IMG/VR virus record: IMGVR_UViG_2695420540_000013
Source of the DNA: a virus
Lineage: Duplodnaviria > Heunggongvirae > Uroviricota > Caudoviricetes
Direction: 5' to 3' (one strand)
DNA length: 10,060 bases
Positions 922 through 6,821 of the stretch are shown here, piece after piece. The position numbers and the translations under genes were made by a program. A model generated the notes under the pieces. It did no database searches. It saw nothing but the letters and a program-made list of their open reading frames with translations, and was not told where the DNA came from. Position 1 is the first letter of the stretch, and every line of letters begins with the position of its first letter.

Positions 922-1149
922 TGTGCCCCCATCGCGCTGGTTAAGAAAACAAGCTCAGATTTTTTGTAAAGAATCTGTCACGCTAAAAGATGTCGAACAA
1001 AAATTAACCACAATCATCATCTTTTTTGCATCAACCACATTAAAAACAACAGGTTACACACATGATGATGATGACGATAAAACCACAAAAATGCGTTTTT
1101 TTCCGCGCCGACCCGCCCCGTGGACAGGCCCCCCCCACCAGGAGGACCC

Positions 1150-1179
1150 GCAAAAAAGGCGGCTGCTGCCGCCTTGTTC
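1150..1179 (-). terminator. Rho-independent terminator immediately after the protease-capsid gene stop
   Basis: Perfect 8-bp stem AAGGCGGC / GCCGCCTT (1156..1163 and 1168..1175) with a 4-nt loop; on the minus strand it is followed by a T6 run (complement of A1152..A1157). Sits 1 to 25 nt past the stop codon at 1180..1182. Confidence 0.6.
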
Positions 1180-3060
1180 TCATGAAGAAATCGCTCTGAC
1201 CATTCCGCGATAATCCAGAGCAGCAACGCCAGCATCAATGCGGACCTTCCAGGCCACACCGTCAACAATAAAGCCCTCCTGCTGCTCAAGGTAAGGCTCG
1301 TCATTACCGTCAAGATAAGCCACCTCAATTGTGTCCGTTCCCTGTGCTGAAAGCATGTACCATTGCTTATCACTGACTTCATCAAGGCGGGGATCGACAA
1401 TAATATCCAGTTGTTTGTGGTACGGGTTATATGAACCACTGTTTGTATCGGCACCGAAAGGCGTGGTTGAGTTAACCATTTGCAACGCTCTGTCTTCCAG
1501 AGCCGCAGGAACAAGAAGGAATTTTGGCACAATATTCAGCACCTCACCGTTTTCATCCCTCTGTGTGCGCATTGCACGGCGTGCAATGCCAAGCCCTGTA
1601 GTGCTGACTCCGTTATCAATATCATTTCCGTGTTTTTTGCTGAACAGCGGTATACCGTCAGAAAGCTTTGTGTTTCCTGTCAGCACCAGATGAACCAGAT
1701 TACCCACCGTTCTGGCGGCTGCTCGCCCCATTGCCTGTGGGATAACTGTTAACTGATTCAGGTCATCGTTAATAATCGCCTGTCGGGTAATGCTGAAAAT
1801 ATTTCCGTAAGTTGCCAGCGCGATTGGTTCGCCACGGTCACTGGTGGTGATGTATTTATATTCCGCGCCTTCCGGCACTTTGTTTAATGTAGAGAAGCCA
1901 TTCAGGCCAACACGACGTGCCTCATGGAAGTTTGACAATGAACCTTTTTTCGTCCACTGGCGGAACGTTTCGCCGCTGTGTTCCCATCCGGCAAGCACGG
2001 ATTTTTCAGCACCACCAGCAAGGATATAAGTAAAATCGCTGCTGCTGTGGGTGAATGCCGCGTTTACTATCTGCGAGCGTGTGCTGTAGCTGCCTGTGCT
2101 TATGCCGCGATGGGTTAATGATGCCTGTGCCATATCGAAAAGGCTCATCATGGCGTAAGGGTTGCCGCGTTCTGCCTGTTCATGTCCCAGACGCGCATTA
2201 AGCCCCTGACGCATTGCATCGCCGGTTATGTTGCCGTTATCCGTGTACGCGTAGTAAAGATTTGCGGGGGTGGTTTTGTTTGTCGGTGTCGATTCTTTAC
2301 CCATAGTGAGTAAAAGGCGTTCGCGTGCATCCTCAACGCTACAGCCTGAATCAGCAAGACAACTTATAGCCAGGTCGTTATATCTTCCATTGAACGTGCC
2401 AAACAATTCACGTATCCCGTTGAGTCGTTCCTGTTCTCCGCTGCCAGTTTTCTGGCTGATCATGCTTTTAATATTTTCCGGCATATTCGAAAAATCTCCG
2501 ATTCGTTTTGATTCAATTCTGGCCATTGCTGTAATCGCGGGTATAACCTCATCTGCGAAGCCATTAGCCTTACACTCATTGCCATCCATCCAGGTTTCCG
2601 CCTCCATCATGGCGGTGATTTCCTGTTTGCTCCTGCCCGTTCTTCCGGCGTAGGTTTCCGCCATCGTGTCGCCCAGCTTGTCCATCAGGTCAGCAAAGCG
2701 GCGAACGTCGCCCGACACTCCGGCAGTAACACCACGGGGGGCATGTATCATCATCATCGCGTTTTCAGGCATAACGATGTGATCGCCACACATGGCAATA
2801 AACGAGGCCATAGAAGCCGCCATGCCTTCAATGTGTACAATTTTCTTTGCCGGATGATTTTTCAGGGCGTTATAGATAGCCAGCCCTTCAAAGATGTCGC
2901 CACCAGGTGAATGGATGCGAAGATGGATTTCAGGCACATTACCGCACGCGTTGATCTCGTCAGTAAGTGCCGATGCTTTTACACCGTACCCGCCGATCTC
3001 GTCATAAATGCGTACATGTACAACATCAGCCATAGCCTTAATGGAAAACCATGTTTTCAT
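1180..3060 (-). CDS. ClpP/S14-like prohead (head maturation) serine protease fused to an HK97-fold major capsid protein, 626 aa
   Basis: The N-terminal ~190 aa carry ClpP-family signatures: HSPGGDIFEGLAIYNAL (cf. ClpP INSPGG..IY), EGMAASMASF (cf. GQAASMG, catalytic Ser) and MMMIHAPRG (cf. MIHQPLGG, catalytic His). The C-terminal ~430 aa resemble phage major capsid proteins (assigned from context and general look, not from a specific motif). ATG at 3058..3060 with AGGAG 7 nt upstream; an in-frame ATG at 3031..3033 is an alternative start. Confidence 0.85.
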   Translation of the reverse strand: MKTWFSIKAMADVVHVRIYDEIGGYGVKASALTDEINACGNVPEIHLRIHSPGGDIFEGLAIYNALKNHPAKKIVHIEGMAASMASFIAMCGDHIVMPENAMMMIHAPRGVTAGVSGDVRRFADLMDKLGDTMAETYAGRTGRSKQEITAMMEAETWMDGNECKANGFADEVIPAITAMARIESKRIGDFSNMPENIKSMISQKTGSGEQERLNGIRELFGTFNGRYNDLAISCLADSGCSVEDARERLLLTMGKESTPTNKTTPANLYYAYTDNGNITGDAMRQGLNARLGHEQAERGNPYAMMSLFDMAQASLTHRGISTGSYSTRSQIVNAAFTHSSSDFTYILAGGAEKSVLAGWEHSGETFRQWTKKGSLSNFHEARRVGLNGFSTLNKVPEGAEYKYITTSDRGEPIALATYGNIFSITRQAIINDDLNQLTVIPQAMGRAAARTVGNLVHLVLTGNTKLSDGIPLFSKKHGNDIDNGVSTTGLGIARRAMRTQRDENGEVLNIVPKFLLVPAALEDRALQMVNSTTPFGADTNSGSYNPYHKQLDIIVDPRLDEVSDKQWYMLSAQGTDTIEVAYLDGNDEPYLEQQEGFIVDGVAWKVRIDAGVAALDYRGMVRAISS

Positions 3061-3251
3061 AGCCAGGCTCCTAACGTTGCCCTGTACCAGTATTCAACCG
3101 CGCTTCTCGCAATCTGCCCTTTCGTGGGTACTGGCATTCCAGGGTGATGACTTTTAATGAACTGCTGATAGCGTTCGAGCTTCTCCATAGTTCCGGCGTC
3201 TATGTGCACTGTTGCACTTTTATCCGGTTTTCTGCTGTTGTTCTCTGGCAT
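3057..3251 (-). CDS. Small hypothetical protein, 64 aa (75 aa if started at the ATG at 3282..3284), first gene of the capsid operon
   Basis: ATG at 3249..3251 with a GGAGG Shine-Dalgarno 7 nt upstream; the upstream ATG at 3284 has no RBS. Its stop overlaps the capsid start in an ATGA junction (3057..3060). Confidence 0.5.
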   Translation of the reverse strand: MPENNSRKPDKSATVHIDAGTMEKLERYQQFIKSHHPGMPVPTKGQIARSAVEYWYRATLGAWL

Positions 3252-3324
3252 AAGTCTGCCTCCGTTATGATTAACGGGCATCATTATTGATCGATAAAAC
3301 TGGTAAATAAATCATTTTCTATCT

Positions 3325-3354
3325 AAAAATCAGATTATGTGTTTTCTGATTTTT
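3325..3354. promoter_or_regulatory. Perfect 10-bp inverted repeat AAAAATCAGA-N10-TCTGATTTTT in the capsid-operon promoter region
   Basis: Read directly. Lies 40 to 70 bp upstream of the first start codon of the minus-strand capsid operon, in an AT-rich stretch with weak -35/-10-like hexamers (ATGACA ... TAATCT on the minus strand). Confidence 0.45.
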
Positions 3355-3432
3355 GTCATACCAGCAAAAGAATTGACTAATTATTGCCACGCCAGCACAA
3401 TTAAGACTCATCATTTCGGTAGTGGCAGTATC

Positions 3433-3496
3433 CTTTGTCGCTGACAAAGCGCCTCCGGTGGCACCATCGGGGCGCTTTTTTTTGCGCCTGTTTTTT
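3433..3496. terminator. Cluster of overlapping hairpins with U-tracts (terminator or attenuator-like), orientation ambiguous
   Basis: Hairpin CTTTGTC-gct-GACAAAG (3433..3449); GCGCC (3449..3453) pairs with GGCGC (3471..3475), followed by T8 (3476..3483); GGCGC (3471..3475) can alternatively pair with GCGCC (3484..3488), followed by T6 (3491..3496). Strong terminator shape on the plus strand, weaker on the minus. Directly abuts the masked block. Confidence 0.45.
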
Positions 3497-3498
3497 GT

Positions 3499-3749
3499 NN
3501 NNNNNNNNNNNNNNNNNNNNNNNNNNNNNNNNNNNNNNNNNNNNNNNNNNNNNNNNNNNNNNNNNNNNNNNNNNNNNNNNNNNNNNNNNNNNNNNNNNNN
3601 NNNNNNNNNNNNNNNNNNNNNNNNNNNNNNNNNNNNNNNNNNNNNNNNNNNNNNNCGNNNNNNNNNNNNNNNNNNNNNNNNNNNNNNNNNNNNNNNNNNN
3701 NNNNNNNNNNNNNNNNNNNNNNNNNNNNNNNNNNNNNNNNNNNNNNNNN
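3499..3749. other. N-masked / undetermined sequence block (251 nt, with an isolated CG at 3656..3657)
   Basis: Run of n characters; nothing inside can be interpreted. The six-frame ORFs crossing it (3401..3790, 3422..3880, 3435..4034) are artefacts of translating N. Confidence 0.99.
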
Positions 3750-3755
3750 CGTTGC

Positions 3756-4178
3756 TTAAAACGGTATGTTATCCCCGTACGGATCATCATTCCCCGCCTG
3801 TTGTTTGGCCCTGTTCAGTGCATCAGTGGCCTGCCCCTGTTGGCCTTTTTTACCGCCCGGTCGCGCCGTTCTGGCACTGATTACACTGTCTGCGATAACC
3901 TGCCAGCCCTGCCGCGTTTCTCCGTTCTGGCCTGTCCACTGGCTTACCTGCATGTTACCCGCCACGCTCACCAGCTCGCCTTTCTGGTGCTTTGCCAGTG
4001 CGTCAGCCTGTCTGCCAAACGCCAGGACGGATAACCATATCGTCGCCGTTCCGTCATCTGCCTGGCTGCACGGCAGGGGAACCGCCATACTCGCCATCGT
4101 CATTTGCGTACCCTTGCTGGTGGTCTTTAACTGCGGGTCAGCCACCAGCCGCCCGTAAGCCGCTATCTGTGCTGTCAT
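3756..4178 (-). CDS. ssb: Single-stranded DNA-binding protein (SSB), 140 aa
   Basis: N-terminal OB-fold-like region (AAYGRLVADPQLK ... WLSVLAFG ... GELVSVAGNMQVSQWTGQNGETRQ), a Gly/Gln-rich linker, and an acidic C-terminal tail ending DDPYGDNIPF (cf. E. coli SSB DDDIPF). Start ATG at 4176..4178 overlaps the upstream gene stop (ATGA). Confidence 0.85.
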   Translation of the reverse strand: MTAQIAAYGRLVADPQLKTTSKGTQMTMASMAVPLPCSQADDGTATIWLSVLAFGRQADALAKHQKGELVSVAGNMQVSQWTGQNGETRQGWQVIADSVISARTARPGGKKGQQGQATDALNRAKQQAGNDDPYGDNIPF

Positions 4179-4734: not shown

Positions 4735-6525
4735 CTATGCACATGATGGCATCCAGTCTTCTGAATCCTCTGTCAGGGTCACATTTGAACGCAAACCGTG
4801 CTTCGTTTTCCGTTTCATATACTCCCTGCCATATTCCGCCATTGCCCCCGGCATATCTTTACCGAAGCGCGTCAGTGTTACAGGTTTACCGAATCCGTGT
4901 GCCCTCATATATGCCAGATAGGCGTGATAAAGATACCTGCGCGGACTGAACGGAATAATTTCGGCATTACCCACTAACAGACCATCACACATTACCGACG
5001 ACATGAGATAGCCGCAGAAGTCCACCAGCGAATCGCCCTCGCGTTTTATCACCAGAGCTTCTTCTGATTTCTGCTGCTCATACAGCAGGCGTTTAGCTTC
5101 GTCCTGGTCAGAAAAACGAGTAAGCAGGTGGCGAATCACAACCGCCAGCTCTCCTTCTATTTTTTCTGCCAGCATGGGGTCGCGTTCGTTCTCCGGTACA
5201 ACTTCCGAAAAATTGAATATCACCCGACGACGTGAGATCCCCCCGCTGCGGTCACTGAATGACATGGCGTTATTGTTAACCGCCAGCACTACTGCCGGAA
5301 TACGCGTTGAGTAGGGGGCTTTGTGTTTCGGGTCAATTGCCACCTTGTCACCGCCTGTAATGGCCTTAATCCCTGCCCCATCACCAGCGTAGCGGGTCAT
5401 ATCCGGCATGATAATCAGCGAAAAGCCAACCACTAACGCGCGTTCCCTTGCATCTTCCAGCGCCTTCATGCTTGCCGATACTGTGTTGGCCTTACCCGCC
5501 AGCATGGTGCAAATCTCCGCCATCACGCTTTTACCACTTCCCCCTGGACCTGTTACCTCAATGAATAACTGCCAGTCGTACCGGTTCGCCAGCACCATGA
5601 ATAATACAGCCAGTACGCGATCCGCCTTGCGGTCATTCTCAGCCACCGAACGGCGTAACCACTTCCAGAAATTCGGCGCATGTGTTGCCAGCGTTTCCCC
5701 CTCTGCTGGTGGGCTGAAAGGTAATTCACTGGCAATTAACAACCAGTCGTTTTTGTTATGCTCCCGAAAATTACCTGTTCTGGTATCAAATACCCCGTTA
5801 CTGAATCCAATCAGGTTACGGGCTGTATTCCCCATTACAGGCAAACTTAACTTCATGGTATCGACCGCCGATTTAATGGCGTTCTGCGAATAGCTGATCT
5901 CCGCATCAATGAAAATCTGTGCCATAGCTCGCTGTAATTCTTTATCCTGTACTGGCTCCCATACAACGCCGTTGTAATGGTGAACAGTGTCAGAGTCAGC
6001 ATGAATCGCCAGTTCACCGCCATAATGTGCCAGGAGAACTTCGCCGCGTTGACTTGCTCCCATCTGGTTAAGCGCCAGTGATGAAGCGTTATCGTCTTTT
6101 ACCCGCTCTTTTTTCTTTACAGGCAGTTCAACTACCTTTTTCTTTTCCGCCTGCTCTGCCCGTTCACGTTCCAGATATTCGCGCCAGTTCTCCCGTTTCT
6201 GGCTGTGCATTCCTTCAGGGTAATAATCAGCATCCCTGACACCTGCCACTGCCAGTTTCTGCCCGATGGTATTAACAAGCCCCGGACGCAATAACCCCGC
6301 CTGATAGAGACGCACGCGATAGCGTCCGTCCGGTACGATTTGCAGGTTGTCCAGTTCGGCAAGTTGTTGCTCTCCAAGCCAGACAGGTGGCACGTTATCG
6401 CCAGCCAGTCGCCCGTCCTGTTCCTGCCACTGTTTCGCATGTGCCCACGCATCACTACCCGCAAAAATGATGACTTCCGTCATTTTGTCACGCGGCTGGT
6501 GTTTTAAATTTGGCGCTTTTTTCAT
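4735..6525 (-). CDS. P4 alpha-like replication primase/helicase (N-terminal primase region, Walker-A P-loop NTPase), 596 aa from the preferred start
   Basis: Walker A GPGGSGKS; overall resemblance to the phage/plasmid primase P4-family C-terminal domain. Preferred ATG at 6523..6525 has a GGAGAGA Shine-Dalgarno and forms an ATGA overlap with the upstream gene stop; the ORF track's longer start (6540) and a shorter one (6483) lack an RBS. Confidence 0.88.
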   Translation of the reverse strand: MKKAPNLKHQPRDKMTEVIIFAGSDAWAHAKQWQEQDGRLAGDNVPPVWLGEQQLAELDNLQIVPDGRYRVRLYQAGLLRPGLVNTIGQKLAVAGVRDADYYPEGMHSQKRENWREYLERERAEQAEKKKVVELPVKKKERVKDDNASSLALNQMGASQRGEVLLAHYGGELAIHADSDTVHHYNGVVWEPVQDKELQRAMAQIFIDAEISYSQNAIKSAVDTMKLSLPVMGNTARNLIGFSNGVFDTRTGNFREHNKNDWLLIASELPFSPPAEGETLATHAPNFWKWLRRSVAENDRKADRVLAVLFMVLANRYDWQLFIEVTGPGGSGKSVMAEICTMLAGKANTVSASMKALEDARERALVVGFSLIIMPDMTRYAGDGAGIKAITGGDKVAIDPKHKAPYSTRIPAVVLAVNNNAMSFSDRSGGISRRRVIFNFSEVVPENERDPMLAEKIEGELAVVIRHLLTRFSDQDEAKRLLYEQQKSEEALVIKREGDSLVDFCGYLMSSVMCDGLLVGNAEIIPFSPRRYLYHAYLAYMRAHGFGKPVTLTRFGKDMPGAMAEYGREYMKRKTKHGLRSNVTLTEDSEDWMPSCA

Positions 6526-6821
6526 TTCTGCTCTCTCCACGCGGCAATCATGTTTTTTAGTTCCTGTAGTTTTTTATCAACATCCATACATGACACATGG
6601 TTATTTCTGGAAAGCGGGATTTCCCGACTGAATCTGCTAATAAAGATCTCCACGTTCAGCGAACTAAGAAATGAATAGCCATCACGGATAAAATACACAC
6701 GGTCAAACATCAGTTCTTTTACCGTTACTCTGTTACCGTTCTTATCCAGATAAATAGCGCCGGGGATAATTTGGGGGTGTGCATAACCGCTGGCAGTCAA
6801 GCCAGATAAATACGTTCTCAT
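6522..6821 (-). CDS. Hypothetical protein, 99 aa (second gene of a low-GC two-gene cassette)
   Basis: ATG at 6819..6821 with GGGGA upstream; stop overlaps the primase start. Sampled 60-nt windows here give about 35-43% GC versus about 52% in the primase gene. No family recognised. Confidence 0.55.
   Translation of the reverse strand: MRTYLSGLTASGYAHPQIIPGAIYLDKNGNRVTVKELMFDRVYFIRDGYSFLSSLNVEIFISRFSREIPLSRNNHVSCMDVDKKLQELKNMIAAWREQK

Follow-up and report, generated by a model that had tools for sequence, protein, structure and literature searches.

In the 10,060-nt viral sequence IMGVR_UViG_2695420540_000013 (Caudoviricetes; hereafter the window, meaning the whole stretch that was analysed), a cluster of overlapping inverted repeats at positions 3433–3496 borders a block of masked bases, between a single-stranded DNA-binding protein (SSB) gene and the capsid operon of a phage satellite. 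Judging from sequence and predicted structure, this region is, on balance, probably the 3′ half of a plus-strand gene for a small non-coding RNA that is transcribed independently and ends in an intrinsic terminator. Such a gene would be antisense-oriented to all genes of the satellite. A σ70-type promoter at 3373–3401, divergent from the control region of the capsid operon, would start transcription near 3404–3408, and a hairpin at 3449–3475 with the U8 tract behind it would end the RNA at ~ 3480. Read from its 5′ end, the RNA would start with a conserved single-stranded tail, followed by a stem-loop whose loop is anti-Shine-Dalgarno-like; an A-rich linker would then lead to the 11-bp hairpin with U8. 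The terminator would also keep plus-strand transcription out of the adjacent packaging site, cos1. We infer that the promoter fires and that the RNA accumulates, and we regard the locus as a candidate satellite small RNA (sRNA) gene with its terminator.

Anatomy of the terminator hairpin and of the predicted RNA

The motifs named in a preliminary description of the region were all found in place: GCGCC at 3449–3453, GGCGC at 3471–3475, T8 at 3476–3483, a second GCGCC at 3484–3488, and a second T-run, TGTTTTTTGT, at 3489–3498. The sequence CTTTGTC-GCT-GACAAAG occupied 3433–3449, and the N block began at 3499. That description had paired GGCGC with either GCGCC as a 5-bp stem; the upstream pairing is actually the outer part (base) of an 11-bp stem on the plus strand (3449–3475), with nine G-C pairs, a bulged U3454 and the 4-nt loop GCAC. 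The U8 tract (3476–3483, plus strand) follows directly, and the T-run had 6–9 T in all variants. A GC-rich stem, a short loop and a U-run immediately after the stem, the last on the plus strand only, are the elements of an intrinsic terminator. A generic terminator scan found four terminators in 1.5 kb of the window versus 1.9 ± 1.3 expected, which is not above chance by itself, and three in the 550-nt unmasked relative versus 0.5 ± 0.7 expected.

The 45 copies of the RNA unit that we fetched, from E. coli genomes, IMG/VR and a few metagenome contigs, comprised 16–19 distinct sequences in two clades, referred to below as window type and E. coli type. The hairpin loop differed between the clades and the stem was kept. 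The window-type hairpin had a folding energy of −18.6 kcal/mol on the plus strand versus −14.5 kcal/mol on the minus strand; the E. coli-type hairpin, with two G·U pairs, had −19.2 versus −12.8 kcal/mol. In all 19 sequence variants the hairpin was 4–6 kcal/mol more stable on the plus strand, because its G·U pairs turn into C·A mismatches on the minus strand. The plus-strand RNA 3405–3498 as a whole folded with −32.3 kcal/mol (z = −2.7, with 1 of 200 shuffles as good), and the minus-strand RNA of the same region with −23.8 kcal/mol (z = −1.2).

We folded a 150-nt read-through RNA, taken from an identical relative and extending 70 nt past U8, in both orientations. On the plus strand the terminator hairpin had a pair probability of 0.99, and the alternative hairpin GGCGC-T8-GCGCC (3471–3488, assigned to neither strand, −9.1 kcal/mol in isolation) had a probability of 0.003. 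The minus-strand RNA was bistable, with 0.59 for the alternative hairpin and 0.41 for the long one. The proposed mutually exclusive hairpins thus hold for the minus strand as real bistability, whereas on the plus strand the alternative is merely formal. There, the alternative helix should be unable to affect termination, because its 3′ arm follows the U-tract in transcription. Its sequence never varied, so it offered no covariation. The third, supposedly independent hairpin at 3433–3449 (again assigned to neither strand) is present in the sequence and reached a probability of 0.51 on the minus RNA, but only 0.002 on the plus RNA, where a different stem (stem-loop 1, below) replaces it; the main E. 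coli clade does not keep its right arm. Behind the long hairpin, the minus-strand RNA read only UUUGUC in the window type and UUUUAC in the E. coli type, and neither of the two bistable hairpins was followed by a U-tract.

The σ70-like promoter at 3373–3401 (plus strand) has the −35 element TTGACT (3373–3378), a 17-nt spacer and the −10 element CACAAT (3396–3401). It was the only promoter-like site between 2900 and 4400 (9/12 matches) and lies 47 nt before the hairpin; the same site was found by the scan in the identical relative. In the window and seven E. coli relatives, TTGAC was invariant and −10 positions 1, 2, 5 and 6 (C, A, A, T) were kept, with a variable spacer. Promoter and terminator bracket a predicted non-coding RNA of ~ 75–80 nt (3404–3483, plus strand), as expected of an sRNA gene, although by sequence only; its ends were placed from promoter geometry and the terminator, with the 5′ end at 3404–3408 and the 3′ end within U8. 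The plus strand of the unit contained no ATG and no open reading frame (ORF).

The best conserved part of the RNA body was the 5′ tail AGACUCAUCAU... (3404–3420, plus strand), which is predicted to be single-stranded with an unpaired probability of ~ 0.9. Its sequence AAGACUC-R-UCAU (TAAGACUC-R-UCAU) was kept between the clades, and the seven inter-clade differences within the first 20 nt were all transitions. Behind the tail, stem-loop 1 (3421–3428 paired with 3435–3442, plus strand) exposes the anti-Shine-Dalgarno-like loop UAUCCU and had a probability of 0.98 in the window type. The E. coli type forms an equivalent 8-bp stem from an unrelated 5′ arm (GCGAUAAA), with a probability of 0.80. 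The core UCCUUUGUCG and the terminator stem were kept across the clades; variation lay in the promoter spacer, the mid-part of the RNA and the loop of the hairpin. The 45 nt between promoter and hairpin thus held conserved blocks although the clades are only 78% identical overall. The unit occurred in 267 of 5426 complete E. coli genomes (at a coverage of at least 80% in 144), and a search for further divergent copies in IMG/VR and the JGI metagenomes returned the same two clades only.

A minus-strand ORF at 3319–3447, of 31–42 codons, runs across the promoter and the RNA region and looks partly conserved. As a candidate small protein it was rejected, because an early stop codon truncates it in the most common E. 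coli clade and its Shine-Dalgarno-to-ATG spacing is wrong; it is probably not a gene.

No Rfam family matched the whole window at the gathering threshold, and at E ≤ 10 the region and its E. coli relative returned only generic terminator-like noise. A full-text literature search with the RNA sequence retrieved no paper, and no publication that we found reports an RNA gene situated between cos1 and the capsid operon in islands of this kind. Two sets of described RNAs were considered and rejected as the RNA in question: Esr41/EcOnc14 is encoded on SpLE1, hence at a different locus, and the Pas sRNAs are located in lambdoid structural operons, in a paper that makes no mention of satellites. The EcOnc table of Tree et al. 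(2014) listed nothing in Sp7/Sp8 and no candidate at the locus.

Several observations weigh against an RNA gene. The promoter is modest (9/12), and one promoter-like match per 1.5 kb is the level found in shuffled sequence; in the commonest E. coli variant the −10 element is CAGTAT (3/6), below the scan threshold. RNAalifold, run on six variants, recovered the terminator but not stem-loop 1, with one compensatory pair; covariation is almost uninformative here because there are just two clades. Moreover, the list of Tree et al. (2014), obtained by Hfq crosslinking and analysis of cDNA (CRAC), has no entry at the locus, for a strain (Sakai) that is not shown to carry the island. Sakai prophage Sp15 does not carry it, since its terL is intact.

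The modest promoter, which the scan does not call in the main E. coli clade, would also suit a plain insulating or bidirectional terminator, a reading that we consider unlikely but worth weighing seriously. Such an element would stop stray transcription from either side, blocking transcription from the capsid control region towards cos1 and from ssb and cos1 towards the capsid operon, and its plus-strand product would be functionless. The known E. coli island EcCICFT073 carries an A7-hairpin-T4/A4-hairpin-T7 element at the same position with no recognisable promoter, and distant relatives have a simple terminator there, both of which fit this explanation. The gene strand, however, offers just UUUG or UUUUAC as a tail, with a stem that is 4–6 kcal/mol weaker. 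Insulation would also leave unexplained the conserved blocks of the RNA body between promoter and hairpin, the retention of the −35 element and the key −10 positions, and a complementarity to helper sense-strand RNA that exceeds that of shuffled sequences (see below). For these reasons we favour the RNA gene.

The masked block, the cos sites and other readings of the repeats

The masked block (3499–3750, minus strand) comprises 252 N positions, and as the window's own bases there are unreadable, its content was deduced from relatives. Four IMG/VR loci (L090, L115, L116 and L136) were identical to the window on both flanks of the block, across 199 nt on its left and 350 nt on its right, and carried 216 nt in its place. 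Neither in these nor in the E. coli relatives did the block sequence contain a gene. Read in the gene direction, it begins with a canonical terminator directly after ssb (AGCCGGAGCAATCCGGC-T6), ~ 230 nt upstream of the hairpins, with cos1 in between. The sequence that follows shares 83% identity, across 95 nt, with the region immediately upstream of terS in the host prophage of the E. coli O157 island. This cos1 has the cosN core ACGGGGCGG..CGCGGAAAAAGGCG (also given as ACGGGGCGG..CGCGG) and a diverged cosB. This core resembles lambda cosN, at the left end of lambda.

The preliminary description had allowed that the repeats might simply be the 3′ terminator of a gene inside the block. No gene there uses the terminator, yet a plain terminator is what the hairpin appears to be, that of a small antisense-oriented transcript. 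The T-runs that it placed after each alternative pairing fared differently. The U8 at 3476–3483 is the terminator tail, whereas the run at 3489–3498 lies in sequence homologous to cos and need not be a terminator tail. The phage cos homology extends to TTTACAAAAAA(A)CAG, the reverse complement of window 3486–3498, and the second T-run therefore belongs to the cos region. The edge of cos1 at 3486–3498 (minus strand, TTTACAAAAAACAGG) is homologous to the end of the helper cos-to-terS region; the corresponding sequence is CTTTACAAAAAAACAGAG in the helper prophage, ~ 45 nt before terS, and CTTTACAAAAAATCTGAG in cos2. The downstream GCGCC with T6 thus reads more plausibly as the junction with cos1 than as a second regulated terminator.

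Given that the masked block corresponds to cos1, the copy after the capsid gene is cos2 (954–1175, minus strand; helper-homologous part 954–1156). It follows the terminator of the capsid gene and precedes the 93-aa ORF orf93, which takes the position of terS in the phage. It is more phage-like than cos1 and shares 85% identity with the helper cos region across 204 nt. Both cos2 and the block of the relatives are homologous to the helper cosQ-cosN-cosB region upstream of terS, as expected of lambda-type cos sites. More distant relatives of the capsid module, from Kluyvera, Yersinia, Buttiauxella and Moellerella, had neither cos1 nor the RNA unit but a plain gene-strand terminator and replication iterons at the same position. 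Since both are absent there, the RNA unit appears to be a discrete insertion that arrived together with cos1.

The divergence of the cos1 cosB from that of the helper, as in EcCICFT073, makes a DNA-level packaging signal conceivable. The inverted repeats would then be cosB-like elements, or binding sites of integration host factor (IHF) or of a complex of the Rpp-TerS type, belonging to cos1 and acting as DNA rather than RNA. The region abuts cos1, positions 3486–3498 are themselves cos-homologous, and the EcCICFT073 cos1, which this one resembles, has an island-specific cosB that is recognised by RppA-TerS (PMC6739421). Nevertheless, we give this explanation a slender chance. The hairpin begins where the cos homology stops, ~ 175–215 bp from cosN and at the position of the phage's terS ribosome site. 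At the DNA level, the palindrome is imperfect exactly where RNA wobble pairs fit, and the promoter, the GC stem and T8 make up the anatomy of a terminator. Tests of two small ORFs, orf93 and orf75, yielded no Rpp homologue, as neither had a sequence match in the PDB.

The least probable explanation, with a still smaller chance, is the one put forward in the preliminary description, an attenuator or riboregulator that may gate read-through from early into late genes. Cast on the minus strand, such a device would have a GGCGC-A8-GCGCC antiterminator compete with the long hairpin as terminator and gate read-through from the replication genes or cos into the capsid operon. The description correctly placed the signal at the RNA level, between ssb and the capsid operon, and its GCGCC/GGCGC/GCGCC arrangement was invariant in all relatives. 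The two minus-strand structures are also nearly iso-energetic, with the small hairpin transcribed first, and, in an island lying inside a late gene of the helper, late helper transcription would run across the hairpins. The gating is not supported, as the strong hairpin and U8 lie on the strand opposite the genes. Attenuation is left unsupported because neither structure leads into a U-tract on the gene strand and because we found neither an upstream promoter nor a sensor: ssb ends at its own canonical terminator, no σ70-like minus-strand promoter was found in the cos1 interval between that terminator and the hairpins, and neither a leader peptide (the only ORF is broken in the main clade) nor an Rfam riboswitch or leader family was found. 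The G·U pairs favour the opposite strand, and there is no covariation. A lambda Q-modified polymerase ignores terminators, and the Q-modified helper polymerase would be expected to do the same here.

Possible action on helper mRNA

Beyond the RNA gene itself, it is possible, as a lead rather than a finding, that the RNA acts in trans, with late mRNAs from the lambdoid helper phage as its targets. The sequences offer two candidate sites: the helper protease-capsid gene has one at its ribosome-binding site, and the helper tail-terminator gene contains the other. In this proposal, which is just as tentative, the RNA would attack the helper by pairing with the protease-major-capsid gene, at its start codon and ribosome-binding site, and with the tail-terminator site, lowering the synthesis of head and tail proteins. 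The island's own capsid protein begins at a position corresponding to helper residue ~ 19 and hence lacks the targeted leader, so its gene would be spared; with no such ribosome-binding site, it would be favoured by the action in trans.

In E. coli O157:H7 strain 3-5-1, the island and a Sp15-type helper occupy the same locus. The E. coli-type RNA had a perfect match of 12/12 nt (ACGACAAAGGAG) to the Shine-Dalgarno region of the helper C-like (protease-capsid) gene of that locus. The window-type RNA matched 14/15 nt (GUCAaCGACAAAGGA) at the same site and also paired across the GUG start. The candidate pairing segments were CUCCUUUGUCG / CGACAAAGGAG, of which CUCCUUUGUCG would be the putative seed of the RNA. 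The GTG start and AAGGAGG of the helper gene were kept in five phages. As helper we used Sakai prophage Sp15, which is identical to the O157 helper at the portal-capsid junction. Among the 52 initiation regions of Sp15, the C-gene site ranked first with both RNA variants (−38.6 and −31.1 kcal/mol), and 0/300 shuffles reached these energies with either variant. The best of the 52 regions was likewise unmatched by shuffles of the window-type RNA (0/300).

An ungapped scan of the whole prophage placed the best sense-strand match of both variants in the 3′ part of the gpU-like (tail-terminator) gene, where the site pairs with nt 1–20 of the RNA (p = 0.003 and 0.010, 1000 shuffles). The antisense strand of the prophage gave background matches only, and the island's own initiation regions scored far worse as targets.

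We treat the anti-helper function as a lead because other results count against it. The related phage mEp460 had no significant target (p = 0.67 and 0.14) and lacks the gpU site, so that the target evidence appears limited to the Sp15-type helper. Among 50,697 phage records, no perfect partner was found for the window-type RNA. The antisense hairpin of EcCICFT073 had no promoter match and no significant target in the neighbouring lambda-like prophage (p = 0.43). We must also note that the two RNA variants are not independent tests, and that the best-of-52 value of the E. coli type was not unusual (p = 0.18). The complementarity could, moreover, be a relic of captured phage sequence.

The annotated start of the helper protease-capsid gene differs between records. 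RefSeq places it at an ATG (L194 3581–3534, minus strand, and L198–L201), with an in-frame GTG 45 nt upstream, after AAGGAGG; the Sakai annotation uses the GTG, which is probably the true start.

The island and its comparison with known systems

The window is a Gram-negative phage-inducible chromosomal island (PICI), or helper-embedded satellite, of the EcCICFT073 kind, with two cos sites and its own protease-capsid gene. It has the integrase, alpA and primase-type replicase genes, the unidirectional gene order, the helper-like cos, the late-zone capsid gene and the ~ 10 kb size of this type, which is already known, including EcCICFT073 with two lambda-like cos sites and its own capsid gene (PMC6092414; PMC6739421; bioRxiv 10.1101/2022.07.18.500453). 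All window genes lie on the minus strand: the tyrosine integrase gene (8822–10060), the AlpA gene (8193–8489), a repressor-like/Icd-like ORF followed by DUF4222, the D5-type primase gene (4735–6540), the SSB gene (3756–4178, Pfam SSB) and, in the late zone, a small ORF that comes first in the capsid operon (3057–3284; PHROG 4934, of unknown function, and annotated as a hypothetical protein in relatives), the gene of a ClpP-like prohead protease/major capsid protein fusion (1180–3060; Pfam CLP_protease and Phage_capsid_4) and orf93 (640–921). The fusion protein is 51% identical to the helper C-like fusion. E. coli relatives were ~ 90–95% identical to the window in genes and only ~ 78% in the intergenic region 3285–3499.

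In strain 3-5-1 (L194), the island lies inside terL of a lambdoid prophage, co-oriented with terL, and the portal-capsid junction of that prophage is identical to VT1-Sakai/Sp15; being inserted in terL of a helper-type prophage, the island qualifies as a helper-embedded satellite. In E2855, the same island type adjoins a tRNA-Ile gene near mug/rpoD. Among the E. coli relatives L079–L084, the gene upstream of cos1 varied (SSB, a PerC-family regulator, primase or a RepA-type helicase) and the cos1, RNA unit and capsid module stayed constant, which seems to indicate that this module moves as one block between replication modules. In the IMG/VR contig L090 (1–5500), the window-type late region was joined to a second, different island fragment with a protease-capsid gene of its own, a gene for a HEPN-domain protein, GGTGAACAG iterons, a 5′-truncated primase gene, a third cos copy and a DUF1441 terS; this arrangement suggests tandem or recombinant satellites.

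Between the divergent plus-strand promoter and the capsid operon lies an operator-like 10-bp inverted repeat, AAAAATCAGA-N10-TCTGATTTTT (3325–3354, assigned to neither strand), whose arms TCAGA/TCTGA were kept in the E. coli relatives. It adjoins the block ATTGATCGATAAAA.TGGTAA.TAAA (3287–3312), kept even in Kluyvera and Buttiauxella islands. The capsid operon probably has its operator/promoter region here; on the gene strand, no σ70 consensus promoter was found. At the same place, EcCICFT073 has a 14-bp palindrome beside a small ORF, in a spacer with no cos.

The island type, its two cos sites, the capsid gene, intrinsic terminators, sRNA genes and satellite RNAs are each already known. PICIs and helper-embedded satellites of E. 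coli are a well-studied model of phage parasitism and move virulence genes in Shiga-toxin-producing strains, and their known interference tools are proteins (Rpp and capsid homologues). If the RNA gene is real, a conserved small RNA gene between packaging site and capsid operon would add an RNA layer to the PICI system, such as has so far been found in one satellite only, the PICI-like element (PLE) of Vibrio with SviR. If the action on the helper is real as well, it would be a mechanism of post-transcriptional interference undescribed for E. coli PICIs or helper-embedded satellites. Even with a functionless RNA, the alternative hairpins would be resolved as a terminator abutting a cos site, and the account of what relatives carry in place of the masked block has value for annotation.

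Like transcription attenuators (leader-peptide, T-box or riboswitch), the region has overlapping helices that share one arm and are bistable on the minus RNA; unlike them, it has no U-tract on the regulated strand, no sensor, no feeding promoter and no covariation. The P4 CI, P1/P7 C4 and IsrK immunity RNAs, which some PICIs and helper-embedded satellites carry in their Bro zone (bioRxiv 10.1101/2022.07.18.500453), are small regulatory RNAs of satellites in this broad group, as the candidate RNA would be. They belong to the Bro/immunity zone and the gene strand, arise by processing of a leader and act in cis by causing premature termination, whereas the candidate RNA is antisense-oriented, with a position between the replication zone and the late zone. 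The Rfam C4 and isrK models had no match in the window at the gathering threshold or, at E ≤ 10, in the region and its E. coli relative.

With EcCICFT073 (PMC6092414; PMC6739421) the island shares int, alpA, a D5-type primase, its own capsid gene and two lambda-like cos sites, one with a diverged cosB, as well as a terminal 93-aa ORF at the same position (L202 3374–3655). The capsid gene is a ClpP-protease/major capsid protein fusion here and not lambda E-like, and cos1 lies directly upstream of the capsid operon. At the place of the RNA unit, EcCICFT073 has only an antisense-oriented hairpin with T7, lacking the conserved promoter and RNA body. In the CFT073 chromosome (L202 209–462), this hairpin lies upstream of the capsid operon and stands back-to-back with the terminator of a PerC gene, with GGGCGC between them.

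The predicted unit resembles the trans-acting, Hfq-type sRNA genes of enterobacteria, with their order of 5′ seed, A/U-rich linker, GC hairpin and poly-U, in its σ70-like promoter, its length of ~ 75–80 nt, the absence of an ORF, its conserved single-stranded 5′ end, its GC-rich 11-bp hairpin and its U8. It differs from them in having no Rfam family and in being encoded in a PICI, between cos and capsid genes. A functional parallel would be the sRNA SviR, by which the PLE satellite of Vibrio cholerae represses translation of a structural gene of phage ICP1 (bioRxiv 10.1101/2022.04.08.487710). Satellite family, host and helper are unrelated in the two cases, no sequence relationship is established, and SviR is validated whereas the targets here are predictions only. 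Like SviR, nonetheless, the candidate RNA is satellite-encoded, is conserved across its satellite lineage and has predicted complementarity to a helper structural mRNA that includes the ribosome-binding site.

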